Shown here: positions 17,763-35,713 of the stretch, in pieces
How the letters are laid out: each line of letters begins with the position of its first letter
How positions within the stretch are numbered: position 1 is the first letter of the stretch
Assembly: GCA_041664465.1 (NCBI GenBank)
Contig: JBAYKP010000004.1
Location: 6,876-70,875, forward strand
Length of the DNA: 64,000 nt
Direction of reading: 5' to 3'
Origin: Minisyncoccota bacterium
GTDB lineage: Bacteria; Patescibacteriota; Minisyncoccia; Phycocordibacterales; UBA9973
Made by a program: the position numbers and the translations under genes
The notes under the pieces: generated by a model
The model's database searches: none
What the model saw: only the letters and a program-made list of their open reading frames with translations
Told to the model about the DNA's origin: nothing

Positions 17763-19027
17763 TGAAAAATTTTGATTTTAAAATTGAAAAGAAAATCCCA
17801 AATTTTTTGGGGAGAGCTGGGGTCATTAGTACACCGCATGGAGATATAGAGACTCCATCTTTTGTTGTTGTGGGTACGAAAGGTACAGTGAAGTCTTTGA
17901 CAGTAGAGCAATTGAGAGAAATTGGCACCCCAGTGGTACTGGCGAATACTTATCACTTGTACTTACAGCCAGGGGATGAGCTTATAAGAGATGCGGGGGG
18001 CTTACATAAATTTATGAATTGGCAAGGTCCCTTGATGACTGACTCTGGAGGATTCCAAGTATTCTCGTTAGGAGTAGCATATGGCAAAGAAATTTCTAAA
18101 GTAGTTTCTGTTACTGACCCAAGTCTTCTTATTCCTGAGAGGTCAATAGCAGAAGATGGAGTACCCAGACTTGCAACTATAGGCAATGATGGAGTATCTT
18201 TCCGCTCACATATAGATGGCTCACTTCATTATATAACTCCCGAGAAGTCTATAGAAATTCAGCATAATTTAGGGGCGGATATTATTTTTGCTTTTGATGA
18301 GTGCACATCACCAACAGAGAATGATAGATATCAAGATGAAGCACTTTCTCGCACACATGCTTGGGCAAAGAGGAGTTTGGTAGAGCATAAAAAGAGGGAA
18401 GAGGGGAATAAATTCCCCCAAGCGCTTTTTGGTATTGTTCAAGGCGGGCGGTCAGAAGAACTCAGGAGGAAGTCTGCAAAAATTATTTCTGGAATTAAGA
18501 TAGAGGATGGAATGGACCCCGTGACGGGTGAAGCCCGTTTTACGGGGTTCGATGGATATGGTATCGGTGGTTCTTTTGCCAAGGAAGATATGTCGAGTGC
18601 TGTGAAGTGGGTGAATGAAGAACTTCCCGAAGAGAAGCCTCGGCACTTACTTGGTATTGGGGAGCCGGAGGATTTATTGTCAGGAGTAGAAAATGGGGTA
18701 GATTTATTTGATTGCGTAGGGCCTACTCGTATTGCTCGTAATGGAACTTTGTTTACAAAGAATGGTAAGATAAATATATCAAATGCAAAATTTGTAAAAG
18801 ATTTTGACAAGTTAGATGAAGGATGTGAGTGTTATACTTGTAGGAATTATACGAAGAGTTATTTGTCTCATTTATTTCGTGCCAAAGAAATGCTCGGAGC
18901 AACTCTTGCATCAATACACAATGTGTATTTTATAACTAACTTAGTGAAGAAAATGCGTGGGGCGATAATAGAGGGTACATTTTCAGAATTTAAAAAAGAA
19001 TTTTTAAAGGGATATTTAAAAGAGTAA
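17762..19027 (+). CDS. tgt: Queuine tRNA-ribosyltransferase
   Basis: 421 aa. TGT motifs (LMTDSGGFQVFSL, catalytic Asp region) and a C-terminal zinc site CxCxxC...H (CECYTCRNY...H). Confidence 0.9.
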   Translation: MKNFDFKIEKKIPNFLGRAGVISTPHGDIETPSFVVVGTKGTVKSLTVEQLREIGTPVVLANTYHLYLQPGDELIRDAGGLHKFMNWQGPLMTDSGGFQVFSLGVAYGKEISKVVSVTDPSLLIPERSIAEDGVPRLATIGNDGVSFRSHIDGSLHYITPEKSIEIQHNLGADIIFAFDECTSPTENDRYQDEALSRTHAWAKRSLVEHKKREEGNKFPQALFGIVQGGRSEELRRKSAKIISGIKIEDGMDPVTGEARFTGFDGYGIGGSFAKEDMSSAVKWVNEELPEEKPRHLLGIGEPEDLLSGVENGVDLFDCVGPTRIARNGTLFTKNGKINISNAKFVKDFDKLDEGCECYTCRNYTKSYLSHLFRAKEMLGATLASIHNVYFITNLVKKMRGAIIEGTFSEFKKEFLKGYLKE

Positions 19028-30862: not shown

Positions 30863-31124
30863 AAGTCTATATTAGCAGAAAAGTGAAGTTATTGCGAAGG
30901 GTAAATTAGCGGACCATGAGTACATTTCTCGCCCGCGACTAAAACTTTTTCGTCAAAAAGTTTTGTCTGGGAGTCTCACGACACGATTTACTAATCGCTA
31001 GCTCATCTATTTTCTCTACTAAGAAAATATGATTCCGCTGTTCTCGTCCGCACGCAAAGTATGCAGATACTTTGCTTAAGGTCCACACTCAAAATAGCCT
31101 TATATTATAAGGTTATTTTGGCTG

Positions 31125-31197
31125 TGGACCTTAGCGGACTCGAACCGCTTACCTCCTCATTGCAAATGAGGCGCTCTACCAGATGAGCTAAAGGCCC
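31125..31197 (-). tRNA. tRNA-Ala (anticodon UGC)
   Basis: The reverse complement is GGGCCTTTAGCTCATCTGGTAGAGCGCCTCATTTGCAATGAGGAGGTAAGCGGTTCGAGTCCGCTAAGGTCCA. It has the G3:U70 identity pair, anticodon loop TTTGCAA and T-loop GGTTCGAGTCC. Confidence 0.88.
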
Positions 31198-31268
31198 TAA
31201 AACAATTAATAATTACTAATTAAGAATTAATAATTAAGATATCCCTATATTACCTTATTTTATATTTT

Positions 31269-31296
31269 TTGCAAGACATATAAAAACTGATATAAT
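31269..31296 (+). promoter_or_regulatory. Sigma70-like promoter: TTGCAA, 16-nt spacer, TATAAT, ending 6 nt before the ATG at 31303 (leaderless-type)
   Basis: -35 at 31269-31274 and -10 at 31291-31296. Confidence 0.45.
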
Positions 31297-31302
31297 ATAT
31301 TT

Positions 31303-31575
31303 ATGCAAACAGATTTTTCTAATTCTATTTCAATTAATATTGAATTTGATAAAAATTTAGAAAAAATAACTGGTACTTCGGGTCACACAGTAGTGATGAG
31401 TACGGGTGCTAACTTTATGTTTTTACTTAATAGTATTTTTATGGAATATCCAGAAATAATGAAAATTTGTAAACCAGGGGAATTAGGGTTCACTATCAAT
31501 GGTTATCCACCTAAAGAATATAGTCCACTTTTTGATAAAGACGTAGTTAGTTTTGTGGTAATACAAAACCTTTAA
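31303..31575 (+). CDS. Hypothetical small protein, possibly a beta-grasp (MoaD/ThiS-like) fold without a terminal Gly-Gly
   Basis: 90 aa. The pattern ...ITGTSGHTVV...FTINGYPP...LFDKDVVSFVV resembles the MoaD/ThiS beta-grasp consensus, but the protein ends IQNL. Confidence 0.3.
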   Translation: MQTDFSNSISINIEFDKNLEKITGTSGHTVVMSTGANFMFLLNSIFMEYPEIMKICKPGELGFTINGYPPKEYSPLFDKDVVSFVVIQNL

Positions 31576-31627
31576 ATAGATTCATACTTAGGTGTCAAAG
31601 TTATTAACATATATATTGTACAATATA

Positions 31628-31655
31628 TTGACAATATTTTTCATACATATATAAT
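31628..31655 (+). promoter_or_regulatory. Sigma70-like promoter: TTGACA, 16-nt spacer, TATAAT, ending 6 nt before the ATG at 31662 (leaderless-type)
   Basis: -35 at 31628-31633 and -10 at 31650-31655. Confidence 0.5.
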
Positions 31656-31661
31656 GAAAAT

Positions 31662-32441
31662 ATGATTAAAAATATATTTCTATTAGAACTAAGGAAAACT
31701 AATAAGTTATCTCAGGCTTTTATGGCTCAAAAGATAAGTGTTTCTCGTGCCAGTTATATTGAAATTGAAAAAGGAGCAAAAGAACTTACTCTTTCACAAG
31801 CACAAAAAATTGCTGATATTTTTAATATATCTCTCGAGTCTCTTATTTCTGGTAAAAAAACTTCTGAAATAGAAGTATCTTTTAGTAAAGAAAAAAATAA
31901 AGAAGAGAAAAAAGAACTTCGTATTGATGTTCCACAAAAAAATATTAAAAAATTTAAAGAAGTTCTATTATATATATTAGAAAAAGTTGGAAGCAAGTCT
32001 AATGTTGGAATGACTGTTTTGTATAAACTTCTGTATTTTATAGATTTTGACTATTATGAAAAATTTGAAGAGCAATTAATAGGGGCCACATATATTAAGA
32101 ATCATTTTGGGCCGACTCCTATTGAATTTAAAAAGATTGTAGAGAATCTTGAGTTAAAAGGAGAACTAGAAACTGTAAAAAGTAAGTATTTTCTACATGA
32201 ACAGACCAAATATCTATCTCGTCGTCAACCTGATATATCTGTCTTAAGTGCTCAAGAGATAAAGCATATAGATGAGGTTCTTTCTAGACTTTCTGATAAA
32301 TCTGCAACCGAATTAAGTGATTATTCGCATTTAGATATTCCATGGCTAGGAACAGAAGATGGAAAGGTAATAAAATATGAATCTGTTTTTTATCGAACTA
32401 AAGATACATCAGTAAGAATATATGCCGATGATAACTTATAA
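31662..32441 (+). CDS. HTH (XRE-family) fused to a Panacea/DUF4065 (SocA-like) domain; putative antitoxin
   Basis: N-terminal HTH_3 (LRKTNKLSQAFMAQKISVSRASYIEIEKG). The C-terminal LYKLLYFIDFDYYEKFEEQLIGATYIKNHFGPTP matches the Panacea/DUF4065 signature. Confidence 0.6.
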   Translation: MIKNIFLLELRKTNKLSQAFMAQKISVSRASYIEIEKGAKELTLSQAQKIADIFNISLESLISGKKTSEIEVSFSKEKNKEEKKELRIDVPQKNIKKFKEVLLYILEKVGSKSNVGMTVLYKLLYFIDFDYYEKFEEQLIGATYIKNHFGPTPIEFKKIVENLELKGELETVKSKYFLHEQTKYLSRRQPDISVLSAQEIKHIDEVLSRLSDKSATELSDYSHLDIPWLGTEDGKVIKYESVFYRTKDTSVRIYADDNL

Positions 32442-32793
32442 AAAGACAGAGGATTTTGAAAAAGATCTCAAACGGCTTCTTAAAAAATTTCCAACATTGG
32501 TTGAAGATATTGAAATTGCCAAATCTTTTGCGATAGAGATGTATCACCTAAAGAATATAGACAAGAGATCGATTTTTCCGATTCCAAATTTCTTTTCTGA
32601 AACAATAAAAATCTGTAAACTCAAAAAGTTTGCTTGTAAATCTTTAAAGGGGCGTGGTGTAAAAAGTAGAATAAGAATTATATATGCTTTTTACGTAGAA
32701 ACTAAAACAATAGATTTTATTGAAATGTATTTTAAAGGAGAAAAAGAAATAGAAGATAAAGAGAGGATAAAAGAATATTTAAAAAACATTTAA
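32422..32793 (+). CDS. RelE/ParE-fold toxin-like protein, overlapping the Panacea gene by 20 nt
   Basis: 123 aa. The basic C-terminal region RIRIIYAFYVETKTIDFIEMYFKGEKE fits the RelE/ParE pattern (R.iY....e...v.il.i..r). Confidence 0.45.
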   Translation: MPMITYKKTEDFEKDLKRLLKKFPTLVEDIEIAKSFAIEMYHLKNIDKRSIFPIPNFFSETIKICKLKKFACKSLKGRGVKSRIRIIYAFYVETKTIDFIEMYFKGEKEIEDKERIKEYLKNI

Positions 32794-32795
32794 TA

Positions 32796-34118
32796 TCAGA
32801 AGAGAGAAATTATCGCTGCGACGGCGGTGATTCCCATAAGTATAGTGGCGGCCCAACCTAGGAATCTGGTAATGGGCTTATTTTTATATTCACCCATTAT
32901 TTTATGGCTACTACTTATTTTTACAATGAAGACGAGGATGACAGGAGCTACGATGCCATTAGCTATAGCCGAGTAGATGAGAGCTTTAATAGGGTCTATC
33001 CCTATGAAATTCAAGATTATTCCTATGATTATAGAAATAGCGATAATTGCATAGAAAGCGTGAGCCGTTTTATATTTGCGATAGAGACCTTCTTTCCATC
33101 CGAAACTTTCAGATATAGCATAAGCAGTAGAGCCAGCAAGGACCGGTATAGCAAGAAGTCCAGTCCCGATAATTCCAATAGCGAAGAGGAGAGTAGCGAA
33201 TGGTCCTGCAAGTGGTCTTAAGGTCAAGGCAGCATCAGATGCTGTACCAATATTTGTAATTCCATTTACAAAGAGAGTATTTGCACAAACTGCAATGATA
33301 AAGAACATCACAATATTTGATAAGAACATTCCAATCCAAATATCTAGACGCATTTCTTTTACTTCATTGTGAGTTGTTCCTTTACGTGAGGCTACTGTCT
33401 TCTTGCCATCTCGGATTTCTTCTTCTATCTCTTCCGACGTTTGCCAGAAAAAAAGATAAGGAGAAATAGTTGTTCCCAATATTCCTGTTATAAGTAGGAT
33501 TTGAGTTTTAGTAAATGTTATTTGTGGTATAAGTCCATCGTGAAGTAAGAGAGACCAATCCATATGAATTATTAATCCGGTAGCAATATATGCGAAAACT
33601 GCAATGACAAGCCACTTTAAATATTTGGTATATATTCTATATGGCACTATTATTTCCAATAATAATCCTGCCAATCCAGTGAAGATAACTAGAAAAATAA
33701 AAGAAGCTTTTGGAGCTAAGAGTTGTACGGCCTTTGCCATCGCCCCCAAGTCAGCCCCGATGTTTAATGTATTTGCAAAGAAAAGAAGAATAGTACAAAC
33801 ATATAGAATTTTTTTAGAAAAATTTCTTTTAATATTTGAAGCCAGTCCTCGCCCTGTGACCATCGCTATGCGGGCGCACATTTCTTGGACCGTAGCCACA
33901 AGAGGATAAACCCAAACCGCCATCCACAAGAGACTTGTGCCGTATTGAGCTCCTGCTTGAGAATATGTGGCGATACCAGCTGGGTCATCATCTGCTGCCC
34001 CTGTGATAACTCCAGGTCCAATCTTTTTCAAATACTCTGTTCTTTCTTGTAATAAAGATTCTTTTTCTTCTGCCAGGGTTACTTCTTCGTCTTTTGGTAT
34101 CATTTTTTCATCTTTCAT
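32796..34118 (-). CDS. mntH: NRAMP-family divalent metal (Mn2+/Fe2+) transporter
   Basis: 440 aa. NRAMP signature GPGVITGAADDDPAGIATYSQAGAQYG and about 11 transmembrane helices. Confidence 0.85.
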   Translation of the reverse strand: MKDEKMIPKDEEVTLAEEKESLLQERTEYLKKIGPGVITGAADDDPAGIATYSQAGAQYGTSLLWMAVWVYPLVATVQEMCARIAMVTGRGLASNIKRNFSKKILYVCTILLFFANTLNIGADLGAMAKAVQLLAPKASFIFLVIFTGLAGLLLEIIVPYRIYTKYLKWLVIAVFAYIATGLIIHMDWSLLLHDGLIPQITFTKTQILLITGILGTTISPYLFFWQTSEEIEEEIRDGKKTVASRKGTTHNEVKEMRLDIWIGMFLSNIVMFFIIAVCANTLFVNGITNIGTASDAALTLRPLAGPFATLLFAIGIIGTGLLAIPVLAGSTAYAISESFGWKEGLYRKYKTAHAFYAIIAISIIIGIILNFIGIDPIKALIYSAIANGIVAPVILVFIVKISSSHKIMGEYKNKPITRFLGWAATILMGITAVAAIISLF

Positions 34119-34171: not shown

Positions 34172-35713
34172 ATGGCGCTAAACAAACCAAACAAAATTCA
34201 GATAATAAAATATGCTCCACCACCACCAGATCTGCCGACGTTGGGTAGAGTAGATCCAAGTGATGTTGCTTTCATTGGCCGTACAAATTATGTTGCTTCT
34301 CTTGAAGAAAAGAGGTTTGTTTTCGGTATCAAGCGTATAGACCGTAGACGTCATATGTACATCATTGGTAAATCTGGAGTTGGTAAATCTAAACTTCAAG
34401 AATTAATGATTCGCCAAGATATTGCTTATGGGCATGGTGTCTGTATTATTGATCCACACGGTGAGCTCATAGAAGATATTTTGAATTTTATCCCAGAAGA
34501 AAGAATCGAAGACGTCTGCGTAATAGATCCGGGAGATATTGATTTCCCTTCATCCTTTAATCCGCTTGCCAATATTGACCCAACTTTCAAACATCAACTT
34601 ACTCAAGGGTTGATAGAAGTTCTCCGTAAGCAGTTCGGAGCGAACTGGACGCCACGTCTAGAGCACGTTTTTCGTTTTACGGTTCTTGCCTTGCTTGACT
34701 ATCCATTTGCGACAATGCGCGGAATGATAAGTATGCTAACTGATCGTAATTATCGTCAGAAAGTGGTGGAGTATATAGAAGACGACATGGTCAAAAGATT
34801 CTGGGCTATAGAATTCGCTGACTGGTCTGAGAAGTTTGATACGGACGCCATCATTCCTTTGGTGAACAAGCTTGGGCAATTCCTTTCTGATCCAATGCTC
34901 CGAAATATTTTCGGACAGAAAGAAAATAAAATAGATCTAGAACAAATAATGAATGAGCAGAAGATTCTGATGATTAATCTTTCTAAGGGTAAGATTGGTG
35001 AAGAGAACTCATCTTTCTTTGGAGCGATGTTCCTTACCAAGATCAAGCAGGCTGGTATGGCTCGTGCCAAGCTTGAGCCGAAAGATCGTGCGGACTTTTA
35101 TGTTTATGTGGATGAGTTCCAAAACATTGTGACAGATACATTTGAGAACATTCTTTCAGAGGCTCGTAAGTATGGATTGAACCTCATTATCGCTCACCAG
35201 TATATAGCGCAGTTATTACCGAAAGTTCAGCAAGCTGTCCTTGGTAATGTGGGCTCCATAGTGACATTCCGTGTTGGAGGTGATGATGCTACGAAGTTGA
35301 AGCCCGAGTTCGCACCAGTCTTTGATGTGAAAGATATGATTAATCTTGGAGTTGGAGAATTTTATATTAAGATGACGATTGATGGAGAAAGTTATGATCC
35401 GTTTTCAGGAGAGACATTGAAAGTTCTTCCCGCGACACATCCTTCTTATAGGCAAAGAGTTATAGAAGCTTCACGTCGCAAATATTCTATCCCTGCTGGT
35501 GACGCTCAGCGTTTGATAGCCGAAGAAGAAGCCACTATCATCCGTAGTGCTCAAGAAAAGGCTGCAATCACTGGCAAGAAAGGAAAAAGTGAAGAATCTA
35601 ATGAAGAAGAGGAAAACAATAAAGAAGAAAATGATGAAATAGAAAATAAAGAAGAACAAAAAAGCAAACCAAAACCTAAAAAAGAAGAAAAAGGCGGCGA
35701 GCCATTAATCTAA
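34172..35713 (+). CDS. Soluble P-loop ATPase, TraD/VirD4 (type IV coupling protein)-like, of the FtsK/HerA superfamily
   Basis: 513 aa. Walker A IIGKSGVGKS, Walker B YVYVDEFQN, a T4CP-like AHQYIAQL motif, and an acidic low-complexity C-terminus. No transmembrane helix. Confidence 0.5.
   Translation: MALNKPNKIQIIKYAPPPPDLPTLGRVDPSDVAFIGRTNYVASLEEKRFVFGIKRIDRRRHMYIIGKSGVGKSKLQELMIRQDIAYGHGVCIIDPHGELIEDILNFIPEERIEDVCVIDPGDIDFPSSFNPLANIDPTFKHQLTQGLIEVLRKQFGANWTPRLEHVFRFTVLALLDYPFATMRGMISMLTDRNYRQKVVEYIEDDMVKRFWAIEFADWSEKFDTDAIIPLVNKLGQFLSDPMLRNIFGQKENKIDLEQIMNEQKILMINLSKGKIGEENSSFFGAMFLTKIKQAGMARAKLEPKDRADFYVYVDEFQNIVTDTFENILSEARKYGLNLIIAHQYIAQLLPKVQQAVLGNVGSIVTFRVGGDDATKLKPEFAPVFDVKDMINLGVGEFYIKMTIDGESYDPFSGETLKVLPATHPSYRQRVIEASRRKYSIPAGDAQRLIAEEEATIIRSAQEKAAITGKKGKSEESNEEEENNKEENDEIENKEEQKSKPKPKKEEKGGEPLI

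Follow-up and report, generated by a model that had tools for sequence, protein, structure and literature searches.

A predicted PanAT toxin-antitoxin cassette with a RelE-fold, HigB-2-like toxin in a Minisyncoccota bacterium

Introduction

Between a tRNA-Ala gene and the gene for an Nramp protein, a 64,000-nt stretch of DNA from a Minisyncoccota bacterium (contig JBAYKP010000004.1, assembly GCA_041664465.1; the whole stretch is referred to as the window in the following) carries three small open reading frames (ORFs), here termed orfA, orfB and orfC. They raise the question whether a toxin-antitoxin (TA) system of the PanAT type (Kurata et al., 2022; PNAS 119:e2102212119, PMC8832971) is present at this site and, if so, which of the three genes belong to it and what kind of toxin it would deploy. 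A preliminary description, made from the sequence without database searches, had proposed that orfB encodes an antitoxin joining a helix-turn-helix (HTH) domain to a Panacea domain, that the overlapping orfC encodes a toxin of the RelE/ParE fold, and that orfA is a preceding beta-grasp-like gene. With regard to the layout, all three ORFs, their coordinates, their location on the forward strand and the 20-nt overlap of orfB and orfC, counted from the annotated starts, were found exactly as reported there, and the same applies to the position of the island between tRNA-Ala, identified by ARAGORN, and the Nramp gene, identified by PF01566.

Our analysis upholds the central part of that description on the basis of the Panacea domain, the RelE fold, a profile match to HigB-2, the conservation of the gene pair and its insertion in the window lineage. 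We consider it likely, and hold with good confidence, that orfB (panA) and orfC (panT) form a type II PanAT toxin-antitoxin cassette with a HigB-2-like mRNase as the toxin. The third gene, orfA, falls outside this module.

Results

Domain composition of the antitoxin and conservation of the gene pair

The 259-aa orfB product combines the two domains that had been predicted for it. Both an XRE-type HTH (HTH_3; aa 8-60, nt 31683-31841, E 1e-10) and the SocA_Panacea/DUF4065 domain (PF13274; aa 120-228, nt 32019-32345, E 3e-17, 64 bits vs. a cut-off of 25.7) score above the curated Pfam cut-offs, the Panacea match spans profile positions 1-112 of 113, and the signature LYKLLYFIDFDYYEKF...ATYIKNHFGPTP quoted in the preliminary description is present in the translation. 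The two domains are separated by a K/E-rich linker, and the Panacea domain is followed at the C-terminus by a motif, YExVFYRTxxTSVRxY, that emerged as conserved from the conservation profile. With the NCBIfam model SocA_antitoxin (NF047745) orfB reaches 14.7 bits at a cut-off of 190 and thus does not qualify as a SocA equivalog.

Relatives of orfC are present in at least 264 species genomes according to a scan with one genome per species, mostly from Patescibacteria, and gene pairing was counted in the 80 best of these loci. In 77 of them a full-length orfB homolog (47-87% identity) is located directly upstream of the orfC homolog, usually overlapping it by 11-23 nt. Two of the three remaining loci are cut at the locus edge and one (L084) is without a detected orfB homolog. 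The ten most divergent orfB partners all feature HTH_3 and SocA_Panacea above cut-off, the latter with 53-66 bits. The overlapping antitoxin-toxin pair that had been taken for a module on the evidence of a single locus is therefore a conserved bicistron.

More distant relatives of orfC are also accompanied by Panacea proteins, i.e., by a 262-aa HTH-PanA in locus L171, by a truncated PanA in L169 and, in a metagenome-assembled genome (MAG) of the Holosporaceae (GCA_031282425.1, L167 1972-2878), by a 181-aa PanA that is free of an HTH domain, overlaps the toxin gene by 17 nt and forms with it a pair adjoining a RhuM-family gene. This last case shows that toxin and Panacea protein are paired without need for a DNA-binding domain, and the toxin-binding part is therefore expected within the Panacea core or the C-terminal YExVFYRTxxTSVRxY motif.

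In addition, an orfC-like domain was encountered in a very different context. A protein of 3334 aa that contains filamentous-haemagglutinin repeats (PF13332; protein P0248, L173 1753-11757, on a contig from Logan SRR21362843 that stops 77 nt past the gene and thus shows no immunity gene) ends in a domain of about 115 aa that is 34% identical to orfC and retains the R, Y and K residues discussed below as catalytic. In CdiA-type polymorphic toxins the toxin domain is located at the C-terminal tip. The protein looks like a CdiA/FhaB-type polymorphic toxin that uses an orfC-like toxin domain, and the occurrence of the domain at this very position independently suggests that it is toxic.

Sequence and predicted fold of the toxin

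The 123-aa orfC product is basic as had been described (pI 9.5), and the C-terminal signature RIRIIYAFYVETKTIDFIEMYFKGEKE that had prompted its assignment to the RelE/ParE proteins is found in the translation. Its 524 close homologs (64-92% identity) stem nearly all from Patescibacteria MAGs, and the family comprises at least 617 cluster representatives at 50% identity. Searches of orfC against Pfam and NCBIfam yielded zero matches at E <= 1, and scans with PADLOC and PHROGs returned nothing usable. The Pfam search, which the preliminary description had recommended as a check, was thus falsely negative for the toxin; the family is not represented in the curated libraries. As orfC is invisible to Pfam models, structure prediction and a deeper profile were needed.

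For both, we used a set of 79 diverse members of the family. The profile built from this set matched Vibrio cholerae HigB-2 (5ja8, 5ja9, 5mje, 8a0x) in the PDB with an E-value of 4e-4, whereas a profile restricted to close homologs of orfC found HigB-2 among the PDB sequences at E 0.27 only. Likewise, the AlphaFold model calculated from the 79 diverse sequences was of high confidence (pLDDT 97, pTM 0.89), whereas a model from 25 close homologs reached a pLDDT of 41. The former has a beta-alpha-alpha-beta4-alpha topology and conforms to the fold of the RelE/ParE superfamily, in which a helical hairpin at the N-terminus packs against an antiparallel sheet of four strands. When the PDB was searched with this model using Foldseek, the first approximately 45 ranks were taken by RelE-family mRNA interferases throughout (Pyrococcus horikoshii RelE, HP0892, HigB2, Mycobacterium tuberculosis RelE, YoeB, YafQ and HigB), with probabilities of up to 1.00, an E-value of 7e-4 for P. 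horikoshii RelE and TM-scores of 0.60/0.66 for HigB2 (5mje). Some homologs of orfC independently carry a RelE label assigned by the Joint Genome Institute. A RelE/ParE-superfamily fold of orfC is supported by the predicted structure. The earlier view of orfC as RelE/ParE-like thus stands with regard to the fold model and the HigB-2 profile but not with regard to the ParE_toxin and RelE models of Pfam.

Active site and substitutions specific to the window

The active site of V. cholerae HigB-2 has been defined by mutagenesis and consists of R51, R64, Y82 and K84 (Hadzi et al., 2017; PMC5416850). In an alignment based on hidden Markov models (HMMs) three of these four residues, R64, Y82 and K84, correspond to R85, Y103 and K105 of orfC, which are conserved in 96, 94 and 95% of the family, respectively. 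The role of R51 may be taken by K66, which is located on the preceding strand and is 85% conserved. Based on the RelE fold and the conserved catalytic residues, orfC is read as a predicted HigB-2-like, ribosome-dependent mRNase.

A number of observations weigh against this interpretation. The Foldseek matches are of modest significance (E-values of 7e-4 to 1e-2), with TM-scores of 0.5 to 0.7. OrfC matches no curated RelE, ParE or HigB model in Pfam, NCBIfam or PADLOC, and sub-threshold Pfam matches to ParE_toxin/RelE occur in only two of the 79 diverse relatives. The counterpart of HigB-2 R51 falls outside the HMM-aligned stretch, and the surface through which the antitoxin would neutralize the toxin is a guess. 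Furthermore, the window copy of orfC carries two private substitutions, C58F and G83R, at positions that are occupied by C and G in the other 120 of 121 close homologs. G83 aligns with a loop glycine of HigB-2 situated two residues before the catalytic R64, and with G83R at the same distance from the catalytic arginine of orfC, the window allele may be attenuated. Three or more deviations at positions conserved to at least 95% were found in only seven of the 121 close homologs including the window copy.

Taken further, these findings could mean that the toxin of the window is attenuated or dead and that the locus persists only in the function of an HTH regulator whose partner is decaying. Such decay is unlikely in our opinion, since orfC has an uninterrupted reading frame and retains R85, Y103 and K105, while orfB is intact as well, is 94% identical to the gene of a relative and differs from it mostly by synonymous changes (37 synonymous vs. 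15 non-synonymous codons). As an alternative to attenuation, C58F and G83R may be sequencing errors.

Promoters and operators

The preliminary description had referred to leaderless promoters and to a separate promoter of orfA. The site in front of orfB matches the promoter consensus perfectly (12/12) and that in front of orfA, which is separate, matches in 10 of 12 positions; in either case the ATG follows at a distance of 6 nt. A leaderless layout is plausible for both genes, and the panAT mRNA is probably leaderless as judged from the sequence. Among homologous loci the layout TTGAYA...TANNNT-N5-8-ATG was present in 24 of 75, and 28 more feature a leader of 9-40 nt.

Two operator-like palindromes, O1 (TGTCAAAGTTATTAACA) and O2 (TGTACAATATATTGACA), both following the pattern TGTNNA-N5-TNNACA and with their centers 24 bp apart, precede orfB, and O2 extends over the -35 hexamer. 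The same pattern was detected in 55 of the 77 upstream 120-nt regions of orfB homologs, twice in 16 of them, compared to 0.23% of 4287 control windows of 120 nt from the same loci. Within the 64 kb there are only three matches, two of which are O1 and O2; the third, at 18793, falls within the coding region of a tRNA-guanine transglycosylase-like protein and was discarded as a chance occurrence. Operators and promoter are arranged as in type II TA operons subject to autorepression, the predicted repressor being a dimer of the HTH antitoxin.

Insertion of the segment and mobility of the cassette

In order to follow the history of the site, 80 metagenomic relatives of the window Nramp gene were examined for the junction. 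Approximately 36 of them keep tRNA-Ala beside NRAMP; most of these have a gene for an ATPase resembling those of type IV secretion systems (T4SS) upstream of NRAMP, and in about 20 of them genes for a GTPase and/or TMEM175 follow beyond the tRNA. Homologs of orfA, orfB or orfC were found in none of the 80 relatives, the junction-keeping ones included, and the gap between NRAMP and the tRNA is mostly 9-210 nt in the syntenic relatives vs. 1598 nt in the window. Therefore, the whole segment of about 1.6 kb is an insertion in the window lineage, and the absence of the three genes from close relatives, which had been named as the sign of a mobile island, is borne out. The segment also differs from its surroundings by its GC content (26.5% across 31198-32795 vs. 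36.8% in the flanks). It faces the 5' end of tRNA-Ala; direct repeats (att sites) flanking the insert were not found, nor was an integrase ORF within the 1.6 kb. Other, unrelated insertions at the NRAMP/tRNA-Ala/GTPase junction were noted in four relatives (L124 5400-8100, L129 5311-7140, L133 5311-7390 and L166 955-3543) and comprise genes for a Cys-rich protein of 576 aa, for a protein of 645 aa, for small membrane proteins and for metabolic enzymes.

With regard to the cassette as such, of the gene families that flank it at a distance of up to 2.5 kb none recurs in more than four of 75 panAT loci, and none is common with the window. Eleven cassettes with 47-57% (orfB) and 51-71% (orfC) identity (L025, L027, L041, L052, L066, L070, L074, L076, L077, L083 and L085) stem from genomes labeled as Nitrospinota, Acidimicrobiaceae, Spirochaetota, Gammaproteobacteria, Desulfobacterales or Margulisiibacteriota and represent either cross-phylum transfer or mis-binned Patescibacteria contigs. 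A general link of the cassette to tRNA genes was also considered and rejected, as only 10 tRNAs of varying identity were located within 600 nt in nine of 79 loci.

Horizontal spread and residence in a variable spot would also be in accord with a main role in anti-phage defense by abortive infection and not as a plain addiction or stress module; the Panacea domain would then be the sensor and set the RNase free upon infection, a proposal compatible with the same biochemistry. Panacea has been suggested to serve as a sensor in multidomain PanAs, and the TA network has been linked to defense systems (Ernits et al., 2023; PMC10440598). On the other hand, the PADLOC defense models gave generic HTH matches only, none of the genes beside the window cassette was recognized as a defense gene, and searches of the PLSDB plasmids, of GenBank phages and of IMG/VR contigs yielded no relatives of the cassette, so that we regard defense as an improbable main role.

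Proposed mode of action

If the assignment as a PanAT cassette is correct, a dimer formed by the HTH domains of orfB would bind the two TGTNNA-N5-TNNACA palindromes over the -35 element and thereby repress transcription of its own leaderless bicistronic mRNA. Translation of orfC would be coupled to that of orfB through the overlap of 14-20 nt. The range given here reflects the start of orfC: close homologs start where orfC has a second ATG (32428), and orfC may therefore in fact start there as well, giving a product of 121 aa and an overlap of 14 nt. OrfB would neutralize orfC by direct binding through the Panacea core and/or the conserved C-terminal motif, these being the candidate surfaces because HTH-less relatives still pair with a toxin. 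Once freed, orfC would enter the ribosomal A site and cleave the mRNA under translation by means of R85, Y103 and K105 together with K66. On the genome level, the window lineage acquired the cassette together with the unrelated orfA at the junction of tRNA-Ala and the Nramp gene, and the cassette itself would spread by horizontal transfer within Patescibacteria and a few other phyla.

ParE and RelE proteins share one fold, and it was considered whether orfC is a gyrase poison of the ParE type and not an mRNA interferase. A weak ParE_toxin match in one of the 79 diverse relatives (E 0.0025) and the existence of ParE-like PanT groups such as T59 (Kurata et al., 2022, Dataset S1; PMC8832971) point in this direction. 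However, the best sequence and structure matches of orfC are all ribosome-dependent RNases, ParE2 (5cw7) does not appear among the Foldseek results before rank 46 and has a probability of only about 0.3, and the orfC family conserves the residues corresponding to HigB-2 R64, Y82 and K84. Taken together, action on gyrase appears very improbable.

Status of orfA

Six homologs of orfA were found. Compared to a relative with 93% identity, the gene differs at 4, 1 and 9 sites in the first, second and third codon positions, respectively, and this bias toward third-position substitutions argues that orfA is a real gene under coding constraint. The members of the family share an invariant core, MSxGxxFMFLL...YP...PGxLGFxIN..PP..Y.PLFDxD. 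OrfA has no match in Pfam or NCBIfam, and the family profile retrieved nothing significant from the PDB. The resemblance to MoaD/ThiS put forward earlier rests on a single weak match of one of the seven family members to the ThiS-like PF14453 (E 0.0017) and leaves a beta-grasp nature of orfA unproven; the statement that a C-terminal Gly-Gly is missing proved right, and orfA does not qualify as a member of ThiS/MoaD.

Homologs of orfA are absent from all 80 other panAT loci, and one homolog (L004 6001-6291) has unrelated neighbors, among them a small HTH_5 gene and a restriction-modification pair, while Panacea genes are missing from its surroundings. OrfA is co-inserted and does not belong to the TA module. 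The idea of a three-gene system with orfA as a ubiquitin-like beta-grasp accessory, for which its adjacency in the window and in the 93%-identical relative (L005), the weak ThiS-like match and the existence of three-gene PanAT clusters (PMC8832971) could be adduced, is largely refuted by this distribution, is also disfavored by the separate promoter of orfA, and is the least credible of the alternatives, with next to no probability left.

Features of the locus and neighboring genes

The features of the locus are compiled in Table 1. Two observations are added here. A perfect 16-nt direct repeat, CACCTAAAGAATATAG, is present in orfA (31508-31523) and in orfC (32545-32560) in different reading frames; the chance expectation for an AT-rich region of 1.8 kb is roughly 0.01. 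Beyond the Nramp gene, the window encodes a T4SS coupling-protein-like ATPase (34172-35713, forward strand; PF02534, PF10412, DUF87), which is 95-96% identical in relatives in which Nramp is only 87% identical and is thus unusually conserved beside a variable region.

Table 1. Coordinates of the inserted segment, its genes and signals, and the flanking genes in the window.
Feature	Position	Strand	Basis or remark
tRNA-Ala(tgc)	31124-31197	-	ARAGORN; left edge of the inserted segment
Inserted accessory segment, about 1.6 kb (orfA, panA and panT)	31198-32795		GC content; missing in syntenic relatives
Promoter-like site of orfA, TTGCAA-16-TATAAT, preceded by TG	31269-31296	+	Promoter scan
orfA, 90 aa, acidic, co-inserted	31303-31575	+	ORF; coding-type substitution pattern
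Operator-like palindrome O1	31593-31609	+	Pattern match
Operator-like palindrome O2	31617-31633	+	Pattern match
panAT promoter, TTGACA-16-TATAAT	31628-31655	+	Promoter scan
panA (orfB), predicted antitoxin, 259 aa	31662-32441	+	Pfam domains
panT (orfC), predicted basic RelE/HigB-2-like toxin, 123 aa	32422-32793	+	Profile, fold model, residue conservation
Substitution C58F in orfC	32593-32595	+	Unique among 121 close homologs
Substitution G83R in orfC	32668-32670	+	Unique among 121 close homologs
Predicted active-site R85 of orfC	32674-32676	+	HMM alignment with HigB-2 R64
Predicted active-site Y103 of orfC	32728-32730	+	HMM alignment with HigB-2 Y82
Predicted active-site K105 of orfC	32734-32736	+	HMM alignment with HigB-2 K84
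Nramp protein gene, convergent, downstream of orfC	32796-34118	-	PF01566, E 5e-84

Discussion

Implications

The kind of system described here has already been catalogued, and the finding alone leaves the understanding of such systems unchanged. What it adds is first of all a matter of annotation. Because the toxin family is invisible to Pfam, NCBIfam and PADLOC, RelE/HigB-2-like toxins represented by at least 617 clusters and present in at least 264 species genomes are listed as 'hypothetical' in most Patescibacteria genomes, a situation that a dedicated model would fix. The cassette is, moreover, a rare mobile accessory gene shared horizontally across many reduced Patescibacteria genomes.

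A more far-reaching proposal is that of a toxin family centered in Patescibacteria and devoid of a curated model, in which the Panacea domain or the YExVFYRTxxTSVRxY motif neutralizes a RelE-fold mRNase, the domain is perhaps also used as a CdiA-like tip, and the cassette sweeps through populations. We put this forward tentatively and, taken as a whole, consider it more doubtful than probable. To our knowledge, all RelE-family toxins are inhibited by small antitoxins of the ribbon-helix-helix (RHH), Phd or HTH type. If the proposal were true, the mode of neutralization would be new for RelE-family toxins, and the very high conservation of both genes, with 50-87% identity across classes and in unrelated contexts, would reflect recent sweeps of the cassette through ultra-small episymbiotic bacteria. 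The way in which a Panacea antitoxin handles a toxin of the RelE fold is the point of greatest interest, and with its clean operator-promoter region and natural HTH-less variants the pair offers convenient material to study how Panacea neutralizes such a toxin or acts as a sensor.

Comparison with known systems

PanAT systems have been defined in a survey that includes 343 PanAs with an N-terminal HTH domain as well as ParE-like toxins (Kurata et al., 2022; PMC8832971). Dataset S1 of that study lists five PanT groups, T14, T28, T58, T59 and T60, with HHpred matches to RelE, ParE or HigB-2 as untested, and Panacea has later been shown to be capable of direct neutralization or of providing a platform or a sensor (Ernits et al., 2023; PMC10440598); the texts of both articles contain no experimental examination of a RelE-fold PanT. 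The closest counterpart of the window cassette is T14 (cluster pT15), a group of HigB-2-like toxins with HTH-PanA that is marked 'notest', was built from RefSeq genomes and has members in Ca. Saccharimonas aalborgensis (WP_015641600.1), oral TM7, Bacteroidetes, Cryosericota and Methanobacteria (Kurata et al., 2022, Dataset S1; PMC8832971). T14 and the window cassette agree in the order of antitoxin and toxin, in the HTH-PanA architecture and in the presence in Patescibacteria, represented in T14 by Saccharibacteria. The T14 toxin, annotated as hypothetical, gives an HHpred match of 99.7% to HigB-2 and is HigB-2-like as is orfC, and its gene overlaps that of the antitoxin (-4 to -17 nt) in a similarly short manner. 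The window family differs in that it is seen mostly in Patescibacteria MAGs, whereas T14 was derived from RefSeq. Compared by architecture, HigB-2 likeness and taxonomy only, the window family would appear to be T14 or a sister cluster. The preliminary description had considered the pairing a possible new combination; as HigB-2-like T14 toxins with HTH-PanA are already catalogued, it is not new, and the window family belongs to a known kind of PanAT, which it probably extends to a far greater number of metagenomic members.

Among characterized toxins, V. cholerae HigB2 (5JA8, 5JA9, 5JAA, 5MJE and 8A0X) is the best sequence-profile match of orfC and shares its predicted fold including the C-terminal helix. 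In both proteins a glycine-rich basic loop is followed by R-I-I-Y and later by Y-x-K at the active-site residues. The HigB2-HigA2 and orfB/orfC pairs further agree in an antitoxin with an HTH domain and in operator autoregulation, which is predicted for orfB. Unlike orfB, HigA2 is small, neutralizes through an N-terminal disordered segment and is free of a Panacea domain, and HigB-2 and orfC are only 14-20% identical, orfC being longer and containing an extra N-terminal strand.

Caulobacter SocA, the founding antitoxin of the Panacea/DUF4065 family, has PF13274 in common with orfB. SocA is a ClpXP adaptor for SocB, a protein that blocks the replication clamp, and it has no HTH domain. SocB is unlike the RelE-like orfC, and the orfB/orfC pair does not qualify as a SocAB (type VI) system.

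RelBE, YefM-YoeB and DinJ-YafQ, finally, share with the window cassette the fold of the toxin as well as the overlapping, autoregulated operon in which the antitoxin gene comes first. They differ from it in their antitoxins, which are small and of the RHH or Phd type, and in the catalytic residues of the toxins, which include His/Glu in YoeB and YafQ.

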